DNA from: an uncultured Eubacteriales bacterium
GTDB lineage: Bacteria > Bacillota > Clostridia > Christensenellales > UBA1242
Length of the DNA stretch: 64,000 nucleotides
NCBI GenBank assembly: GCA_948514155.1
Contig: CAOQYA010000003.1
Span: 6,057 to 70,056 of the forward strand
Direction: 5' to 3'
Numbering within the stretch: the first letter of the stretch is position 1; every line of letters starts with the position of its first letter. The position numbers and the translations under genes are program-made. This document shows positions 6,662 to 48,549 of this stretch, in pieces. The notes beneath the pieces were generated by a model. That model did not search any database. It was not told the origin of the DNA and saw only the letters and a list, made by a program, of their open reading frames with translations.

Positions 6662-6736
6662 GGTCCCTTGGTCAAGCGGTTAAGACGCCGCCCTCTCACG
6701 GCGGAATCAGGGGTTCGATTCCCCTAGGGACTACCA
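6662..6736 (+). tRNA. tRNA-Glu (anticodon CUC), CCA encoded
   Basis: GGTCCCTTGGTCAAGCGGTTAAGACGCCGCCCTCTCACGGCGGAATCAGGGGTTCGATTCCCCTAGGGACTACCA folds as a cloverleaf. Same architecture as Bacillus tRNA-Glu. Confidence 0.9.
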
Positions 6737-36448: not shown

Positions 36449-36802
36449 TGGTGGAGACGGCGGGAATTGAACCCGCGTCCGAAACAAGCAGTAAAAGCTT
36501 TTCTCCGTGTGCAGTTTGTGATTAAGTCTCAAAAGCGCAATTTTCACAAACAAAACTTGCTCTTTCCAGCCTTTTAGAATCTCACTTTAAAACGAAAGGC
36601 GCATTTTAAAATGATTTTTCGCTCTGTTTGACGCCCCGATAAGAGCGAGCGCACTCTCTTATGGAACGGACTGTTAGGCAGCAGCCTTAACTGTCTTAAA
36701 GTTATTATTTGCGTTTAATTTTTGGTCTGTTTTAAGGTTTCACGCCATCAACCACACGCTTTACACTTTCCTCACTCACCCCGTCGAAACCTTATCGCCC
36801 CC
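36449..36802 (-). ncRNA. ssrA: tmRNA (SsrA)
   Basis: 5' GGGGGCGATAAGGTTTCGACGGGG and 3' GGACGCGGGTTCAATTCCCGCCGTCTCCACCA, with a G3:U pair in the acceptor stem. Tag reading frame GCA AAT AAT AAC TTT AAG ACA GTT AAG GCT GCT GCC TAA = ANNNFKTVKAAA. Confidence 0.9.
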
Positions 36803-43485: not shown

Positions 43486-44163
43486 TTATTTTATCGCGAG
43501 ATTAAAACTTTGTTTTACTCGCTCTACTATTTCGTTAAAGTCGACCGAGTCATCTAAGATTATCGTCACCCAGGACTTCTTGTTCATGTGGTAAGCTGGA
43601 AAATATCTTTTATTGTCCACTACACTCGCCACTTCTTGCGGGCTTATTCGCACATTCAAGATGTCTATTATCTCTTTTGATTTTATTCCAAGTTTTTCTT
43701 TTGGCAGAGCTACAAAGAGTGCATACCATTTACCGGTGTCCTTTCTTCTGCAAATCGCGTTGTTGCAAAATTTCGGCCAAAGAAATTCAAGTTCGTCTCG
43801 AAAATGCTTTGAAACAAATTCTATCAGCCGCTTAGCCTGTGCGCTCCTAAAGATGACTTTTTCAAAACAATTGTCACAAATCTTTTGCAGCAGATTTTCA
43901 AACTCTTCTCGCACCTGACCAACAAAACTTCCCGTCGCAGTCTCTACAAAGATGAGCGCATATGGCTCGCCTGTCGCAACTTCTATCACTTCAGCATCAA
44001 CCTTCCCACTCTTGTCGACACAAACGTTTACAATAAATTGGTCATCTAATATATACCCTCGAAAAGTGAATTTATCTTCTTCACAAGAAAAGCCGAATTT
44101 CAATAATTTATCAAAATTTGGCTCTCTAAACTTAAAAATCTGCTCCAAAAACTTATTTTTCAT
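43486..44163 (-). CDS. MmcQ/YjbR-family protein
   Basis: C-terminal YFPAYHMNKKSWVTIILD resembles the YjbR fold signature. Confidence 0.6.
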   Translation of the reverse strand: MKNKFLEQIFKFREPNFDKLLKFGFSCEEDKFTFRGYILDDQFIVNVCVDKSGKVDAEVIEVATGEPYALIFVETATGSFVGQVREEFENLLQKICDNCFEKVIFRSAQAKRLIEFVSKHFRDELEFLWPKFCNNAICRRKDTGKWYALFVALPKEKLGIKSKEIIDILNVRISPQEVASVVDNKRYFPAYHMNKKSWVTIILDDSVDFNEIVERVKQSFNLAIK

Positions 44164-44164
44164 A

Positions 44165-44650
44165 TCATTTTCTCTCTATCTTCAAAAGCGCCGCCTTTTT
44201 ATCGAGCCCGCCTGCATAACCTATAAGCGCGCCGTTTGAGCCGACAACTCTATGGCAGGGCACTATTATGCCAATCGGATTATGTCCCACCGCGCCGCCG
44301 ACAGCCTGAGCCGAAGCACGCTTGCCAGTCTCGCGCTCAATTTCTTTGGCGATTTCACCATATGTAACAGTTTTTCCAAACGGGATAGTCAAAAGTATCT
44401 GCCAAACTCTTTTCCTGAAAGGCGAAGCCTCTGGCAGCGAGAGCGGCGGAGTGAAGTTTGGCTGACGCCCTGAAAAATAAACATCCAGCCACTTTTTTGT
44501 TAATTTAAAAATTTCAAGTTCGCAATTTTCGCCTGCTTCCGCATGCGTCACAGCGCTTTTCACTATAAAAGACAAACCTGTAAGCGCATCCCCGTCGCTA
44601 GAGAGCAACACCTCTCCAATCGGCGATTTATATGTAGAAAAATATTGCAT
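44165..44650 (-). CDS. ogt: Methylated-DNA--protein-cysteine methyltransferase
   Basis: VPCHRVVGSNG active-site motif. Confidence 0.9.
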   Translation of the reverse strand: MQYFSTYKSPIGEVLLSSDGDALTGLSFIVKSAVTHAEAGENCELEIFKLTKKWLDVYFSGRQPNFTPPLSLPEASPFRKRVWQILLTIPFGKTVTYGEIAKEIERETGKRASAQAVGGAVGHNPIGIIVPCHRVVGSNGALIGYAGGLDKKAALLKIERK

Positions 44651-44667
44651 AACTCTATCACGCCCCG

Positions 44668-44961
44668 CTATTTTTTCATCTCTTCGCAGGTTGAGGCAAC
44701 AATGTCTCTTAAAAGTTCGATGTTGTCAAAATCTTCGAACATAAACATCGGCTTAGCGCCTTTATAGGGAATTTCTTTTGACATGCCAAACTTTTCGTTA
44801 TTTGCGCAAATCTTGAACAGCAGCCTCTCGTCATATATTCCGCCAAAAAGCACGCCGTTTGAATATAGAAGATATTCACCCATCATCGGCCGGCACACAA
44901 TCTCCTCACACAACCTTAACTGCTCCAAAATAAAATCTCTAAAGTCTTTTGATGTTGACAT
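44668..44961 (-). CDS. TfoX N-terminal-domain protein
   Basis: RPMMGEYLLYSNGVLFGGIYDERLLFK matches the TfoX_N pattern. 97 aa, N-domain only. Confidence 0.7.
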   Translation of the reverse strand: MSTSKDFRDFILEQLRLCEEIVCRPMMGEYLLYSNGVLFGGIYDERLLFKICANNEKFGMSKEIPYKGAKPMFMFEDFDNIELLRDIVASTCEEMKK

Positions 44962-45118
44962 AATTTTTTAAAAGTTCCTTTTGCGTTTTCTTTATTATAT
45001 CAAAATCTTTTCAAAACGAAAAGGAATTTATATTTTTAACAGAAATAAGGATAAAATTAGATAGCCATAACCTCAAAACTATTTTAACCTCTTTGAACAC
45101 AAAATTTTTCTTATTTTT

Positions 45119-45646
45119 TTAAAATTGATAAAAACGGACATTAAAAAAATCGTCTTCTATTTTGTCAACGATTTTTGCTTCCTTATTTTGAAAAAACAGC
45201 CAATTGTTTTCACAAATAATAAAATGCCTCGACTTTGCCCTTTCACTTAACAATTTTATCGAAGCATCGAAGTCTGTTTTCGCATCGTAAATAATCTGCG
45301 AAAATAATTTATGCAAACCCAGTTGCTTTAACATCACCTCAGTTCTATCTTTGTCAGCGGCCGTCCAAACAAATGAGTTCCGTTTGCCCTTTTCTTTAAT
45401 TTTGTTTATCAACTTTTCATTAATGACCACCCGATATTTAAGCCATGCCAGCGAAAAGTATCGCTGCTTTTCCTTTATAATATTTTCGAGTTCTTTAATA
45501 GCAAAGCCTTTTAACTTTTCCCTTGTAATTCGTTCGTTTGTTTGAATGCGAAAATTTTTAAACTTTTCCAAAGCAAAATTATATGCATCATTGTTTAATT
45601 TAGTTGAACTAACTAAAGTATCGTCTAAATCTACAAAAAGTTTCAC
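45119..45646 (-). CDS. HAD-superfamily hydrolase (phosphatase/nucleotidase-like), third gene of the PRTase-DprA operon
   Basis: HAD motif I LFVDLDDTLV at the N-terminus. GTG start overlaps the upstream stop (GTGA). Confidence 0.65.
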   Translation of the reverse strand: MKLFVDLDDTLVSSTKLNNDAYNFALEKFKNFRIQTNERITREKLKGFAIKELENIIKEKQRYFSLAWLKYRVVINEKLINKIKEKGKRNSFVWTAADKDRTEVMLKQLGLHKLFSQIIYDAKTDFDASIKLLSERAKSRHFIICENNWLFFQNKEAKIVDKIEDDFFNVRFYQF

Positions 45647-46485
45647 TTTAAAATTTCCTTTAATGTTTTTTTAGTTGTCTTCATAACATCTTTTTCTTTC
45701 AACAAGTCTTCGTTTAGTCCAAAAGTTGGCTGATTTTTATCGGTTTCACCATTAAACATCACAAAGCGCAAACGGCTTTGATATTCTTTTGCTTTTTGCA
45801 TTGCATGACGACTTCCGCTATCTCCTTCGCCGTAGCGATAACTTGCTATCAATATAACCGCTTTCGAAAACATAGCTTGCAGACGGTCTCGTTCAACAAA
45901 TCGCTTAACTGCTTCAAATCTATCTTTCGGCTCGCAAAAATACTCGCTGACAACAAGTCCGCCACTTGCAACTATTTTTTCTGCAAGTCGAACATTCTGG
46001 CCATGATATATATTTTGTAAAGTCGAGGGCAAAAATGCTATTGTTGGTCTTTGCTTGTTTACGACCACACAATGGGCAACTGTATCACAACCTATCGCCA
46101 ACCCACTGACAATCACTTGGCCATTGTCAACCAAGAATTGCACAATTTTTTCTTCTCGTTCGATTATCTCTTTAGTTGGCTCTCTTACTCCAATCACAGC
46201 AACATTTTTTGAAATATCAGACAAGAGTTCTATATCTCCACGATAGGCAAAAAGAAATGGTTTTTCACTTAACTTAATGTTTCCAAATGTTTTAGGAAAA
46301 TTGTCATCAAACGCGCAAATTAAGTCAAAATTTGCTGCTTCTAAAAGTTCTTGTTCTCCAAAAGTTTTAAGGCTAAGTGTTTCAAATACTTCTTTGTTTG
46401 AAAAATTCTTCCAAAAGTCCGCATTGGATTTTATTAGGCCTATCTTTTTCGCAACATAAACTTTTAGTGCGATCTCTGAAAACAT
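45643..46485 (-). CDS. DprA/Smf-like (SLOG superfamily) protein, ShosA-like
   Basis: VAVIGVREPT...VSGLAIGCDTVAH...PSTLQNIYHGQN...FVERDRLQAMFS...DSGSRHAM parallels the DprA Rossmann core (GSR..S.YG / SGlArGID / YP..N / F..RNRiiagLS / SGS..TA), with the canonical RGID changed to IGCD. Confidence 0.75.
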   Translation of the reverse strand: MFSEIALKVYVAKKIGLIKSNADFWKNFSNKEVFETLSLKTFGEQELLEAANFDLICAFDDNFPKTFGNIKLSEKPFLFAYRGDIELLSDISKNVAVIGVREPTKEIIEREEKIVQFLVDNGQVIVSGLAIGCDTVAHCVVVNKQRPTIAFLPSTLQNIYHGQNVRLAEKIVASGGLVVSEYFCEPKDRFEAVKRFVERDRLQAMFSKAVILIASYRYGEGDSGSRHAMQKAKEYQSRLRFVMFNGETDKNQPTFGLNEDLLKEKDVMKTTKKTLKEILK

Positions 46486-46486
46486 T

Positions 46487-47092
46487 CTAACTCCTTGTTT
46501 TTGCTATCACATACATTATACAACTTTTTGCTCCTAAATCAAAGAGTGTCTGTAAACAATCTTCACAAACATTCACATCTTTAGTGTATATATCGTCAAC
46601 CAAGATTAAATTCTTACCATTTATGGCCGCTTCATCAAATACGCAAGTGTCTTTTGTTATACCTTTATATGGGTCGCTTCCCGTGTTATTCTCAAGCCTC
46701 CAATTATGGGTTGTTTTTGTGTTTTTCACCCGTTTGATTGCATCTGTGCCATTCTTCAACCTAAGAGTATCTGCCACACTAGAAATTGCTTTTTTAAACA
46801 TCAATTGACTTTGAGAATAACTTTTTTCAGATTTCGATCTTGGAATAACACAAACAACAGCATCCTGAAAACATTTTTCTGCAATAATCTTTCGTATATC
46901 GAAAGACGCACAATCACAGACTTTGATAAAATCTTCAACTAAATCAGTTTCCTTATACTGCTTTGTCATATTTTTCAAATGATTAACGAAGTCTGGATTT
47001 CCTTCCTTTTGATATCCAACATAATCTTGGTGATAATAGCAAACAACATCTCTATCCAAATACTTATTCTTACATATAGTAAACTTTTTCAT
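46487..47092 (-). CDS. Phosphoribosyltransferase-like (ComF-type fold) protein, ShosT-like
   Basis: NLILVDDIYTKD PRTase acidic motif near the C-terminus. No N-terminal CxxC zinc finger. Start set at the ATG at 47092 after GGGGGAG (the ORF track uses the TTG at 47134). Confidence 0.7.
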   Translation of the reverse strand: MKKFTICKNKYLDRDVVCYYHQDYVGYQKEGNPDFVNHLKNMTKQYKETDLVEDFIKVCDCASFDIRKIIAEKCFQDAVVCVIPRSKSEKSYSQSQLMFKKAISSVADTLRLKNGTDAIKRVKNTKTTHNWRLENNTGSDPYKGITKDTCVFDEAAINGKNLILVDDIYTKDVNVCEDCLQTLFDLGAKSCIMYVIAKTRS

Positions 47093-47248
47093 TTCTCCCC
47101 CCAATTGGCTATCACTATAGTTTAAAGTTTCCAAAATACTCTTTGACCTTAAACTTTATCCAGCCACATAGTTAGAAAATAACACTATATGCACTCACAT
47201 TTCAAGGCAAGGTGCCAGAAAAAACTCGCTAAAACAATTATTTAGGAC

Positions 47249-47262
47249 GCTGCTGACGGGAA
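47249..47262 (-). repeat. Copy of the tRNA-Thr 3' end (T-stem/acceptor strand)
   Basis: GCTGCTGACGGGAA is identical to 47503-47516 (14/14), in direct orientation, 240 nt downstream of the tRNA. Confidence 0.75.
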
Positions 47263-47421
47263 ACCACATCCATGACGGCGTCACCCGGGCGCCCACGTTT
47301 CACTCTGCCCGCTATTCTTAGAATTTTAACTTCGGACGGCGGGACCCCAAAAAACATCTCATTTTTTGGGCTAAGTCGCGGCAAAATCGCCAGCGGAGCG
47401 CGATTTTCGTTTGGTCGCTAA

Positions 47422-47461
47422 ATAAAAAAAACAAGCGTCAACGCGATACGTTTTGACGCTT
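47422..47461 (-). terminator. Intrinsic terminator after tRNA-Thr
   Basis: Minus strand: AAGCGTCAA-loop-TTGACGCTT followed by GTTTTTTTT. Confidence 0.75.
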
Positions 47462-47498
47462 GCCGGCAAAACTGAGCCAAAAGCGCAGTTTTTTCATT

Positions 47499-47574
47499 TG
47501 GAGCTGCTGACGGGAATCGGACCCGTGACCTCCGCCTTACCAAGGCGACGCTCTACCGACTGAGCCACAGCAGC
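47499..47574 (-). tRNA. tRNA-Thr (anticodon GGU), CCA encoded, atypical T-loop
   Basis: GCTGCTGTGGCTCAGTCGGTAGAGCGTCGCCTTGGTAAGGCGGAGGTCACGGGTCCGATTCCCGTCAGCAGCTCCA folds as a cloverleaf. The T-loop reads TCCGATT, with C at position 55 where U is near-universal. Confidence 0.85.
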
Positions 47575-47623
47575 ATATACATCTTCTATTGTTCTTTCAT
47601 ATCCATTGCCCCAACCTTTTATT

Positions 47624-47637
47624 TCAGTCGGTAGAGC
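47624..47637. repeat. Perfect inverted copy of the tRNA-Thr D-arm
   Basis: TCAGTCGGTAGAGC is the reverse complement of 47550-47563. Confidence 0.75.
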
Positions 47638-47737
47638 AAGCACTTCCCGGTCGCAATTATAAATTGCTCCCCGCTTGTCGCTCACAAGTTCGCTGGCTAA
47701 CGATTTGCGCACCGGCAAATCGTCTTAACGCGCCGCG

Positions 47738-47756
47738 CCAACTGAGCCACAGCAGC
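47738..47756 (-). repeat. Copy of the tRNA-Thr 5' end (acceptor plus D-stem)
   Basis: ACTGAGCCACAGCAGC (47741-47756) is identical to 47559-47574 (16/16). The match extends to 19 nt with one mismatch. Confidence 0.75.
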
Positions 47757-47871
47757 ACGAACATTTTTAATGCTTTTATATAATAGCAAATATGCCGGCT
47801 CGTTGTCAATTGATAATCAAAAATATTTTTTGCCAGCATAAAACCAAATCTGTGCTCATAACTATTTATAT

Positions 47872-48549
47872 ATGAATATTGCACTTGTTGGGGCCTGTGG
47901 ACGGCTGGGAAGCGAAGTTAAAAAGATGTTGGAGAAAAAGCACAACGTTATCTCTATCGATATCTCACAAAAAAATTTTACCTCTCTTGAAGAACTGCCC
48001 CTTCTTCCCGAAGTTATTATAGACACTTCAAACGCTGCGCAATCTGTGCAAAGCGGACAGTTTGCTTATCTAAACAATATTCCTATTGTTATCGCATGCA
48101 CCGGCCATGATAGTTGTCAACTTGGCGAAATAAACATTTTTGCTAAAGGCGTGCCTGTTTTTCTTGCCTACAACATGGCTTTCGGTGTGCAAGTTTTTAA
48201 AGAGGCGACAAAATTTATTGCCGAGCGTTTCGACGCTGACATTCACATTCATGAAGTGCACCACAGAAACAAACTCGATGCGCCTAGCGGCACAGCTAAG
48301 GAACTTGAAAACATTTTATCGCATCTTGGCAAGCGATATTGCACAACATCGGCACGCGGAGGCACAGTTATTGGCGAGCACGAAATCTCTTTTTATGGAA
48401 ATGGCGAAACGATAACTCTCACCCACACCGCCCAATCACGAGAGGCTTTTGCAAATGGCATAATAAAAGCGGCGGAATTTATCTCGTCGCAACCCGCCGG
48501 CCTTTACAACATGAAAGACCTAACGGCCTCTCACTCTTTAAGCATTTAA
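47872..48549 (+). CDS. dapB: 4-hydroxy-tetrahydrodipicolinate reductase
   Basis: HEVHHRNKLDAPSGTA signature. N-terminal VGACGRLG Rossmann. Confidence 0.85.
   Translation: MNIALVGACGRLGSEVKKMLEKKHNVISIDISQKNFTSLEELPLLPEVIIDTSNAAQSVQSGQFAYLNNIPIVIACTGHDSCQLGEINIFAKGVPVFLAYNMAFGVQVFKEATKFIAERFDADIHIHEVHHRNKLDAPSGTAKELENILSHLGKRYCTTSARGGTVIGEHEISFYGNGETITLTHTAQSREAFANGIIKAAEFISSQPAGLYNMKDLTASHSLSI

Follow-up and report, generated by a model that had tools for sequence, protein, structure and literature searches.

A probable split and permuted ShosTA-type cassette, with its HAD hydrolase encoded separately, beside a tRNA-Thr gene in a Christensenellales genome

What kind of system is formed by three tightly coupled genes for a phosphoribosyltransferase (PRTase), a DprA-like protein and a HAD-superfamily hydrolase that lie close to a tRNA-Thr gene? 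We addressed this question for a locus on contig CAOQYA010000003.1 of an uncultured Eubacteriales bacterium (lineage Christensenellales, assembly GCA_948514155.1). The analysis covered a 64,000-nucleotide stretch of this contig, henceforth referred to as the window. A preliminary description of the sequence had proposed a gene pair resembling the ShosTA toxin-antitoxin system, with an extra phosphatase that is not part of ShosTA as described. We assign a probability of about 0.62 to a different account of the third gene, in which the locus is a ShosTA-type toxin-antitoxin or abortive-infection cassette whose toxin functions are distributed over two genes. It would be a split, permuted variant of a known system, horizontally acquired as a 2-kb mini-island at a tRNA gene. 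The three open reading frames (ORFs), of 201, 280 and 175 aa, match the earlier description:

46487-47092, minus strand: g1, 201 aa from its ATG, a short ShosT-like PRTase and the presumed toxin.
45643-46485, minus strand: g2, 280 aa, a ShosA-type DprA-like protein, presumed to be an antitoxin binding single-stranded DNA (ssDNA) as well as recruiting RecA.
45119-45646, minus strand: g3, 175 aa with a GTG start, a canonical C1-capped HAD-IA hydrolase.

Both junctions were confirmed. The g1 and g2 genes meet at TAG-A-ATG, with AAGGAG placed 7 nt 5' of the g2 ATG, and g2 and g3 overlap at GTGA. The ATG start of g1 (MKKF...) is the one used by all g1 homologues. The motifs quoted before, NLILVDDIYTKDVNV in g1, GLAIGCD in g2 and FVDLDDTL (motif I) in g3, are all present and fall in invariant columns of the family alignments.

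The system of reference is ShosTA of E. coli (APEC O1 / KTE181; PDB 8ZVA-8ZVD and 9VZO), a type IV toxin-antitoxin and anti-phage system. Its toxin is lethal, ShosA neutralises the toxin without binding it directly, and the pair protects against phage. We located the shosA-shosT pair of E. coli APEC O1 in a P2-like prophage (L088:24159-26418).

The second gene is the one most readily assigned. The PADLOC ShosA model PDLC03961 matched residues 25-271 of g2 with E = 9.6e-49 and 164 bits (the same model scores E. coli ShosA at 285 bits), which is a stronger match than that to the Pfam family DNA_processg_A (E = 7e-37, 127 bits). The ShosA entries 8zva and 9vzo were the best PDB sequence matches, and BLASTP aligned g2 with ShosA of E. 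coli APEC O1 at 29% identity (E = 7e-23). A weak match to PsyrA (E = 6.5e-13) fell far behind the ShosA match. We conclude that g2 is a ShosA-type DprA-like protein. Mutation of ShosA R139 or R234 abolishes ssDNA binding and antitoxin activity, and both residues have counterparts in g2, namely the R of GVREPT and the R of FVERDR; the non-essential R261 of ShosA aligns with a Q. Because g2 keeps both of these arginines, the earlier idea that this SLOG-superfamily protein senses a nucleotide is weakened, and we do not favour it. Two other features had been taken to set g2 apart. The motif GLAIGCD was read as an anomaly, which it is not, since E. coli ShosA (GLAYGID) also lacks the Arg and the two proteins have an Arg-less GLA[YI]G[IC]D motif in common. 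The N-terminus of ~95 aa is there as described, but the statement that it is unrelated does not hold: it sits where ShosA and DprA have a SAM domain, and the ShosA model already matches from residue 25.

The first gene encodes a PRTase alone, without a fused hydrolase domain. The PADLOC ShosT model PDLC03962 matched g1 with E = 7.9e-8 and 30.5 bits, while it scores ShosT of E. coli APEC O1 at 180 bits. When the AlphaFold2 (AF2) model of g1 (pLDDT 92.5) was compared with the PDB using Foldseek, the only matches with E ≤ 1e-3 were H. pylori ComF (7p0h, the top match) and the ShosT structures 8zvc, 8zvd and 8zvb (ranks 2-4, E = 2e-4 to 9e-4). A broad g1 family profile aligned with the E. coli-type ShosT family in hhalign (Prob 89%, E = 2.2e-6, 118 columns), placing g1 residues 79-199 on ShosT residues 233-362, a region that covers the pyrophosphate (PPi) loop, the flexible loop and the DD loop for phosphoribosyl pyrophosphate (PRPP). 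Invariant positions of the g1 family are P84, R85, K87, T127, T128, H129, D166, D167 and T170, and in the acidic motif NLILVDDIYTKDVNV both the DD and the T are invariant across the family. Together, g1 is a short PRTase of the ShosT/ComF clade that is homologous to the PRTase domain of ShosT.

The folds of these two proteins are also those of an ordinary competence locus, in which comFC and dprA would be followed by a HAD phosphatase of unrelated, housekeeping function. In fold, g1 comes closest to H. pylori ComF; g2 scores strongly on DNA_processg_A, and a TfoX_N-like gene lies just downstream. However, g1 reached 21.5 bits on the NCBIfam comF model TIGR00201, far under its cut-off of 233.55, and it lacks the zinc finger, whose conserved CxxC pair is absent from the g1 family alignment. 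Likewise, g2 stayed under the cut-off of the dprA equivalog TIGR00732 (114.9 versus 191.15 bits) and that of NF008007 (84.6 versus 495), and it scored higher on the ShosA model. The relatives of these genes are spread patchily across phyla as a movable, low-GC, 2-kb unit in varied contexts, and neither strict linkage to a HAD gene nor fusion with one is a feature of competence genes. We rejected the competence-locus explanation on the basis of the comF and dprA cut-offs and of the mobile context, and consider it very improbable. The proposal that the pair is ShosTA-like and not a competence pair is borne out by the PADLOC ShosA and ShosT matches, by the missed cut-offs and by the AT-rich, tRNA-adjacent and mutually unrelated contexts. 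No further DprA- or ComF-like ORF was found within the 64-kb window.

The third gene encodes a canonical C1-capped HAD-IA hydrolase. All four HAD motifs of g3 are intact (D6-x-D8-x-T10, T95, K123 and E146); D6, D8, T10, T95 and E146 are invariant in the g3 family, and K123 is kept in at least 90% of the sequences. The AF2 model (pLDDT 94.1) has a helical C1 cap formed by helices 15-86 between strands 1 and 2. The invariant polar or aromatic residues of this cap are N18, N19, D20, Y22, N23, E27, R39, R42, K60, Q61, Y63, W68, R72 and N76. Foldseek placed the model among HAD-IA hydrolases with probability 1.0. With sequence models, g3 scored 21.9 on Pfam HAD_2, for which the gathering score is 23.8, and likewise fell just under the threshold of NIF. 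Neither PADLOC nor PHROGs yielded a model that matches g3, and the only NCBI names for its homologues are “NIF family HAD-type phosphatase” and “hypothetical protein”. The g3 homologues form a small family; in otherwise unrelated contexts, its members are always neighbours of a DprA-like gene and of a g1 homologue of 201 aa.

Is the hydrolase then an addition to ShosTA? The claim that it is not part of the system as described is contradicted by the crystal structures of E. coli ShosT, which comprise a HAD-fold hydrolase/pyrophosphatase domain (residues 1-164) followed by a PRTase domain (residues 165-424) (PMC11961720; PMC12961424). The N-terminal domain is similar to BT2127, a pyrophosphatase of the HAD superfamily, and it cleaves PPi in vitro. 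Toxicity is lost in the PRTase mutant D331A/D332A and is slightly lower in the hydrolase mutant R56A (PMC11961720; PMC12961424). No base substrate of ShosT was found (PMC11961720). In our own searches, Pfam HAD models gave weak matches to this N-terminal domain, and HAD Pfam matches, or the name “HAD hydrolase-like protein”, are found for many of the homologues of ShosT. Since a HAD-fold hydrolase is already inside E. coli ShosT, ShosTA as known consists of a PRTase, a HAD-fold hydrolase and a DprA-like protein; the present locus distributes this triad over three genes, E. coli over two. Judged by architecture, g3 appears to correspond in position and function to the N-terminal domain of ShosT, so that the HAD gene is best regarded as a split-off or equivalent module of ShosTA and not as an addition. 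From its motifs, g3 would be a more complete enzyme than the ShosT domain, with PPi or the 5'-phosphate of the PRTase product as its predicted substrate.

We assessed the linkage of the three genes by scanning one genome per species, which gave 80 loci with g1 homologues. These range over Clostridia, Proteobacteria, Bacteroidota, Leptospira, candidate phyla and others. The architecture was decidable in 69 loci, and in 64 of them a HAD gene adjoins the g1/g2 pair, in agreement with the earlier suggestion that the HAD is a conserved third partner. Two arrangements with the HAD gene, and one without it, were found:

PRTase, DprA-like, HAD: 45 loci, in Clostridia, Fusobacterium and Veillonella.
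HAD, PRTase, DprA-like: 19 loci, in other phyla, with the HAD directly upstream of the PRTase.
No HAD: 5 loci, scattered.

The second arrangement has the N-to-C order of the fused ShosT. In both arrangements with a HAD gene the genes are translationally coupled, with an intergenic spacing that is almost always between -4 and +3 nt, mostly -4, -1 or 0. An exhaustive profile search with the g3 family retrieved proteins in which the modules are fused, and in-frame fusions of the other two genes occur in two of the scanned loci:

P0317 (396 aa), P0323 (406 aa), P0306 and P0331: HAD fused N-terminally to a g1-type PRTase; all four match the ShosT model.
P0185, P0320 and P0219: ShosA fused to a C-terminal HAD.
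L060:2484-4115 (Leptospira biflexa metagenome-assembled genome, MAG): in-frame PRTase-ShosA fusion, an ORF of 543-546 aa, with a separate HAD gene ahead.
L076:5995-7635 (WOR-3 MAG): in-frame PRTase-ShosA fusion, an ORF of 543-546 aa, with a separate HAD gene ahead.

Toxin and antitoxin in one polypeptide, as in the last two, are hard to square with a trigger based on differential stability. A PDB sequence search with the fused relative P0323 gave generic HAD matches alone. As a separate observation, the protein P0268 has a g3-type HAD fused to a domain that matches the PADLOC model PD-Lambda-3_A (E = 1.8e-19), which suggests that other defence effectors, too, make use of the HAD module. Within the literature open to search, which excludes subscription papers (Kimelman 2012 and Rousset 2022 among them), a split three-gene ShosTA is not described.

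Several observations weigh against equating this subfamily with ShosTA. We compared g3 with ShosT as a family profile against a single sequence, as family against family, and as a broad 118-sequence profile against the family; none of these comparisons was significant (hhalign of the g3 family with E. coli-type ShosT, E = 0.28-0.5). The DxD of motif I is missing in 37 of the 37 aligned E. coli-type ShosT sequences, which have F[GS]xxD instead, and their segment between motifs I and II is short, with little space for a cap; of the g3-type partners, by contrast, 61 of 64 have DxDx[TS] and a highly conserved cap. The Foldseek matches of g3 were generic HAD-IA enzymes, with neither ShosT nor the BT2127 pyrophosphatase in the top 50, and of these it is the absence of ShosT that counts here. 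Concerning the PRTase, the ShosT model matched g1 at a modest 30.5 bits, and PDB sequence searches with g1 alone and with the g1 family profile matched nothing, ShosT included. The gene order is toxin, antitoxin, HAD here versus antitoxin, toxin in E. coli. Moreover, the HAD gene of Clostridia is coupled to the antitoxin gene, which a detoxifying role would fit equally well, and the ShosTA-like function of the subfamily is a prediction from sequence and modelled structure. On the positive side, the best of the non-significant alignments between g3 and ShosT is colinear with HAD motifs II-IV.

The complete catalytic apparatus of g3 also bears on what the enzyme might do. Its phosphatase motifs, including the Asp+2 general acid, together with the conserved C1 cap are typical of small-molecule phosphatases, and when the g3 family profile was compared with the PDB, a plant XMP phosphatase (7ef6) came out best. 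This could point to nucleoside synthesis, the alternative chemistry of the earlier description set in a ShosTA-like frame, in which the PRTase would join a base to PRPP to give a nucleoside monophosphate, g3 would act as a 5'-nucleotidase that frees a toxic or signalling nucleoside, and the ShosA-like protein would mitigate the DNA damage. Pairs of a PRTase and a HAD phosphoesterase have been proposed as nucleoside-derivative synthases in Ter systems (PMC7824862), and structures of the BT2127 pyrophosphatase type are not among the top fold matches of g3. However, the XMP phosphatase match is weak (E = 0.0023) and spans 65 residues only. The sole biochemical precedent, the N-terminal domain of E. 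coli ShosT, is a pyrophosphatase, and the base substrate of ShosT was not found (PMC11961720). In addition, five loci have an intact PRTase and no HAD, so the pair can be kept without the HAD step. We regard nucleoside synthesis as unlikely. In a stronger form of it, the cross-phylum subfamily would be more than a divided ShosT and would have a three-enzyme logic of its own: the PRTase and a catalytically complete, substrate-specific HAD 5'-phosphatase would make a modified nucleoside, as a toxic analogue or an alarm, the ShosA-like protein would buffer or read the consequences for DNA, and what E. coli ShosT retains as a degenerate HAD domain would be left over from this ancestral two-step pathway. 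This, too, seems to us rather improbable.

The position of g3 behind g2 raises the question of whether the hydrolase acts on the side of the antitoxin. We searched the region for promoters, and two candidate sites bear on how the genes might be transcribed:

47176-47205, minus strand: candidate operon promoter (TTGAAA, 18 nt, TG-TATTTT), weak and from a consensus scan alone.
46515-46542, minus strand: promoter-like site in the 3' end of g1, just 5' of g2 (TTGATT, 16 nt, TATAAT), a consensus match alone.

The counts of sites from the promoter and terminator scans were not above shuffle expectation. The second site is the best promoter-like match of the region (10 of 12 positions), and it could allow transcription of g2 and g3 independently of the toxin gene. 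An Rfam scan of positions 44000-48500 found the tRNA alone, with no riboswitch or small RNA in the 406-nt leader.

A HAD that serves as a second, enzymatic antitoxin, destroying the toxic product of the PRTase or resetting the system and co-expressed with ShosA, would fit the translational coupling that joins g3 to the antitoxin gene's 3' end, in the window and in 45 related loci. It would also fit the three ShosA-HAD fusions and the possibility that the site at 46515-46542 drives g2-g3 apart from g1. The wider set of loci argues otherwise: in the 19 loci of other phyla the HAD gene immediately precedes that of the PRTase, and some proteins join the two. Mutation of the hydrolase domain in E. 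coli slightly lowers toxicity and does not raise it (PMC11961720). Intact PRTase-ShosA pairs also persist without the HAD. In all five HAD-less loci the HAD is lost or truncated and the PRTase is intact with its DD motif. One of them (L020, 7437-7601) retains a HAD remnant of the first 28-55 codons, and at another (L029, 7437-8701) other ORFs, including a serine-recombinase-like gene, occupy the HAD position; PRTase and ShosA are intact in both. Since the HAD was lost while the PRTase stayed intact, it is dispensable for tolerating the PRTase, and a helper of the toxin therefore fits better than an antitoxin. A second antitoxin is a doubtful explanation, less probable in our view than nucleoside synthesis.

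We therefore return to the ShosTA-type cassette with a divided toxin as the preferred explanation. By analogy with E. coli ShosT, the PRTase core g1 would bind PRPP and interfere with DNA replication and nucleotide metabolism. The hydrolase g3 would supply in trans the role of the fused N-terminal HAD-fold pyrophosphatase domain of ShosT, and might pull the PRTase reaction forward by hydrolysing one of its products, namely PPi or, at its 5'-phosphate, the phosphoribosylated product. The antitoxin g2 would bind ssDNA, recruit RecA and counter the damage. Interference by a phage with g2 or with host expression would then unleash g1. Our analysis establishes the protein families, the conserved motifs, the linkage of the three genes and the fusions; the toxicity of g1, the role of the cassette in defence and the substrate of g3 are all proposed here on this analogy.

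The surroundings of the cassette are consistent with acquisition as a small mobile unit. Its GC content is 33.9%, versus 42.0% for the window and ~41% in each flank, so the DNA is AT-richer than its flanks, as stated earlier. The cassette is the lowest-GC 2-kb stretch of the 64-kb window, and just 0.6% of sliding windows are as low. The distance of about 400 nt to tRNA-Thr was likewise correct, with the tRNA gene lying 406 nt upstream of g1:

47499-47574, minus strand: tRNA-Thr(ggt), detected by ARAGORN and by the Rfam tRNA model (69.4 bits), a probable integration landmark.
47249-47262, minus strand: exact 14-nt copy of the tRNA-Thr 3' end (end of the T-loop, T-stem and acceptor), att-like, between the tRNA and g1.

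The 14-nt copy is 254 nt downstream of tRNA-Thr (repeat family D13). Two copies of this tRNA 3'-end repeat occur in the window (47249-47262 and 47503-47516), versus 0.02 expected, and no shuffle reached two. Upstream of tRNA-Thr there are in addition an 83% copy of the 5' part of the tRNA (47738-47767) and an inverted 14-nt D-arm fragment (47624-47637). To judge from their sequences, the tRNA fragments look like att-site scars of repeated integration or excision at tRNA-Thr.

At least seven different tRNA genes have a related cassette no more than a few hundred nt away (loci L008, L009, L013-L018, L020, L025, L026, L029, L039, L040, L052-L054, L074 and L079), and the tRNAs beside them are Met/Glu, Leu(caa), Arg(tcg), Ala/Ile, Thr/Phe, Ser(gct) and Met. 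Given so many different tRNA neighbours, the 2-kb cassette recurs at tRNA integration hotspots. Integrase genes or fragments are found next to some of the related cassettes; the cassette itself carries no integrase. Among viral contigs, only two contained a homologue of g1; phages are thus not the typical carriers of the cassette. A tblastx synteny search found no homologous locus with the flanks of the window, and no empty site that would define the island boundaries. We consider acquisition of the cassette as a mini-island at the tRNA gene probable as part of the overall explanation given at the outset.

The neighbouring genes are ordinary ones. On one side there are dapB, a LysR regulator and an HD-domain protein, and on the other a TfoX_N-like small protein, ogt, a YjbR-domain protein and an EFR1 ferredoxin. 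The genes nearest to g3 are:

44668-44961, minus strand: protein of 97 aa that reaches 29.7 bits for the TfoX N-terminal domain, slightly short of the cut-off of 30.1, directly downstream of the cassette.
44165-44650: ogt, after the TfoX_N-like gene.
43486-44163: gene for a YjbR-domain protein, after ogt.

This small cluster of DNA-related genes (TfoX_N-like, ogt and YjbR) may or may not be linked to the cassette, which is a solitary 2-kb insertion among ordinary genes and not a defence island. Elsewhere in the window we observed two other RNA genes:

36449-36802, minus strand: transfer-messenger RNA (tmRNA) gene with the tag peptide ANNNFKTVKAAA.
6662-6736, plus strand: tRNA-Glu(ctc) gene.

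The subfamily amounts to a natural dissection of ShosT, in which PRTase and hydrolase are separate proteins and so lend themselves to independent expression, deletion and assay. ShosTA is a verified anti-phage system and the published effect of its pyrophosphatase mutant is marginal, so the split form is useful for studying the role of the hydrolase. With full catalytic motifs and a conserved cap in g3, its substrate should be identifiable. The linkage and the HAD-PRTase, ShosA-HAD and PRTase-ShosA fusions mark PRTase, HAD and DprA-like protein as a conserved functional triad. Annotation software built around a two-gene system will overlook the third component. A split and permuted architecture with a canonical capped HAD is widespread, and we see this as a correction to two-gene rules and not as a new principle.

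We compared the cassette with the known systems that it resembles. With ShosTA it has in common a DprA-like partner that keeps the essential Arg residues and whose GLA[YI]G[IC]D motif lacks the Arg, a PRTase whose PRPP loop carries DD (D331/D332 in ShosT, D166/D167 in g1) and which has a long flexible loop, a HAD-superfamily hydrolase tied to the PRTase, and adjacent, co-oriented genes on horizontally acquired DNA. It differs in that the toxin is split into a 201-aa PRTase and a 175-aa HAD, whereas E. coli has a single 424-aa protein, and in the hydrolase, where g3 combines DxDxT with a C1 cap and the N-terminal domain of the E. coli type has neither DxD nor cap. The similarity of the PRTases is remote, no homology is detectable between the hydrolase modules, and the site is chromosomal and tRNA-adjacent here versus a P2 prophage hotspot in E. 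coli. ComFC and DprA have the same folds and the same pairing of a PRTase-like with a DprA-family protein; unlike them, the genes described here fall below both NCBIfam equivalog cut-offs, lack the zinc finger in g1 and form a mobile, AT-rich and HAD-linked unit. PsyrTA/RqlHI likewise combine a DprA-like antitoxin with a PRTase-containing toxin. PsyrT, however, is a large RecQ-like helicase with a PRTase (689 positions in the PADLOC model), whereas g1 has 201 aa and no helicase, and g1 gave no match to the PADLOC PsyrT model. Finally, the Ter-associated modules, for which synthesis of nucleoside derivatives is predicted (PMC7824862), also bring a PRTase and a HAD phosphoesterase together in a conflict or defence context; unlike those modules, the cassette has no TerB, TerC, TerD or TelA genes nearby, and its partner is the DprA-like protein.

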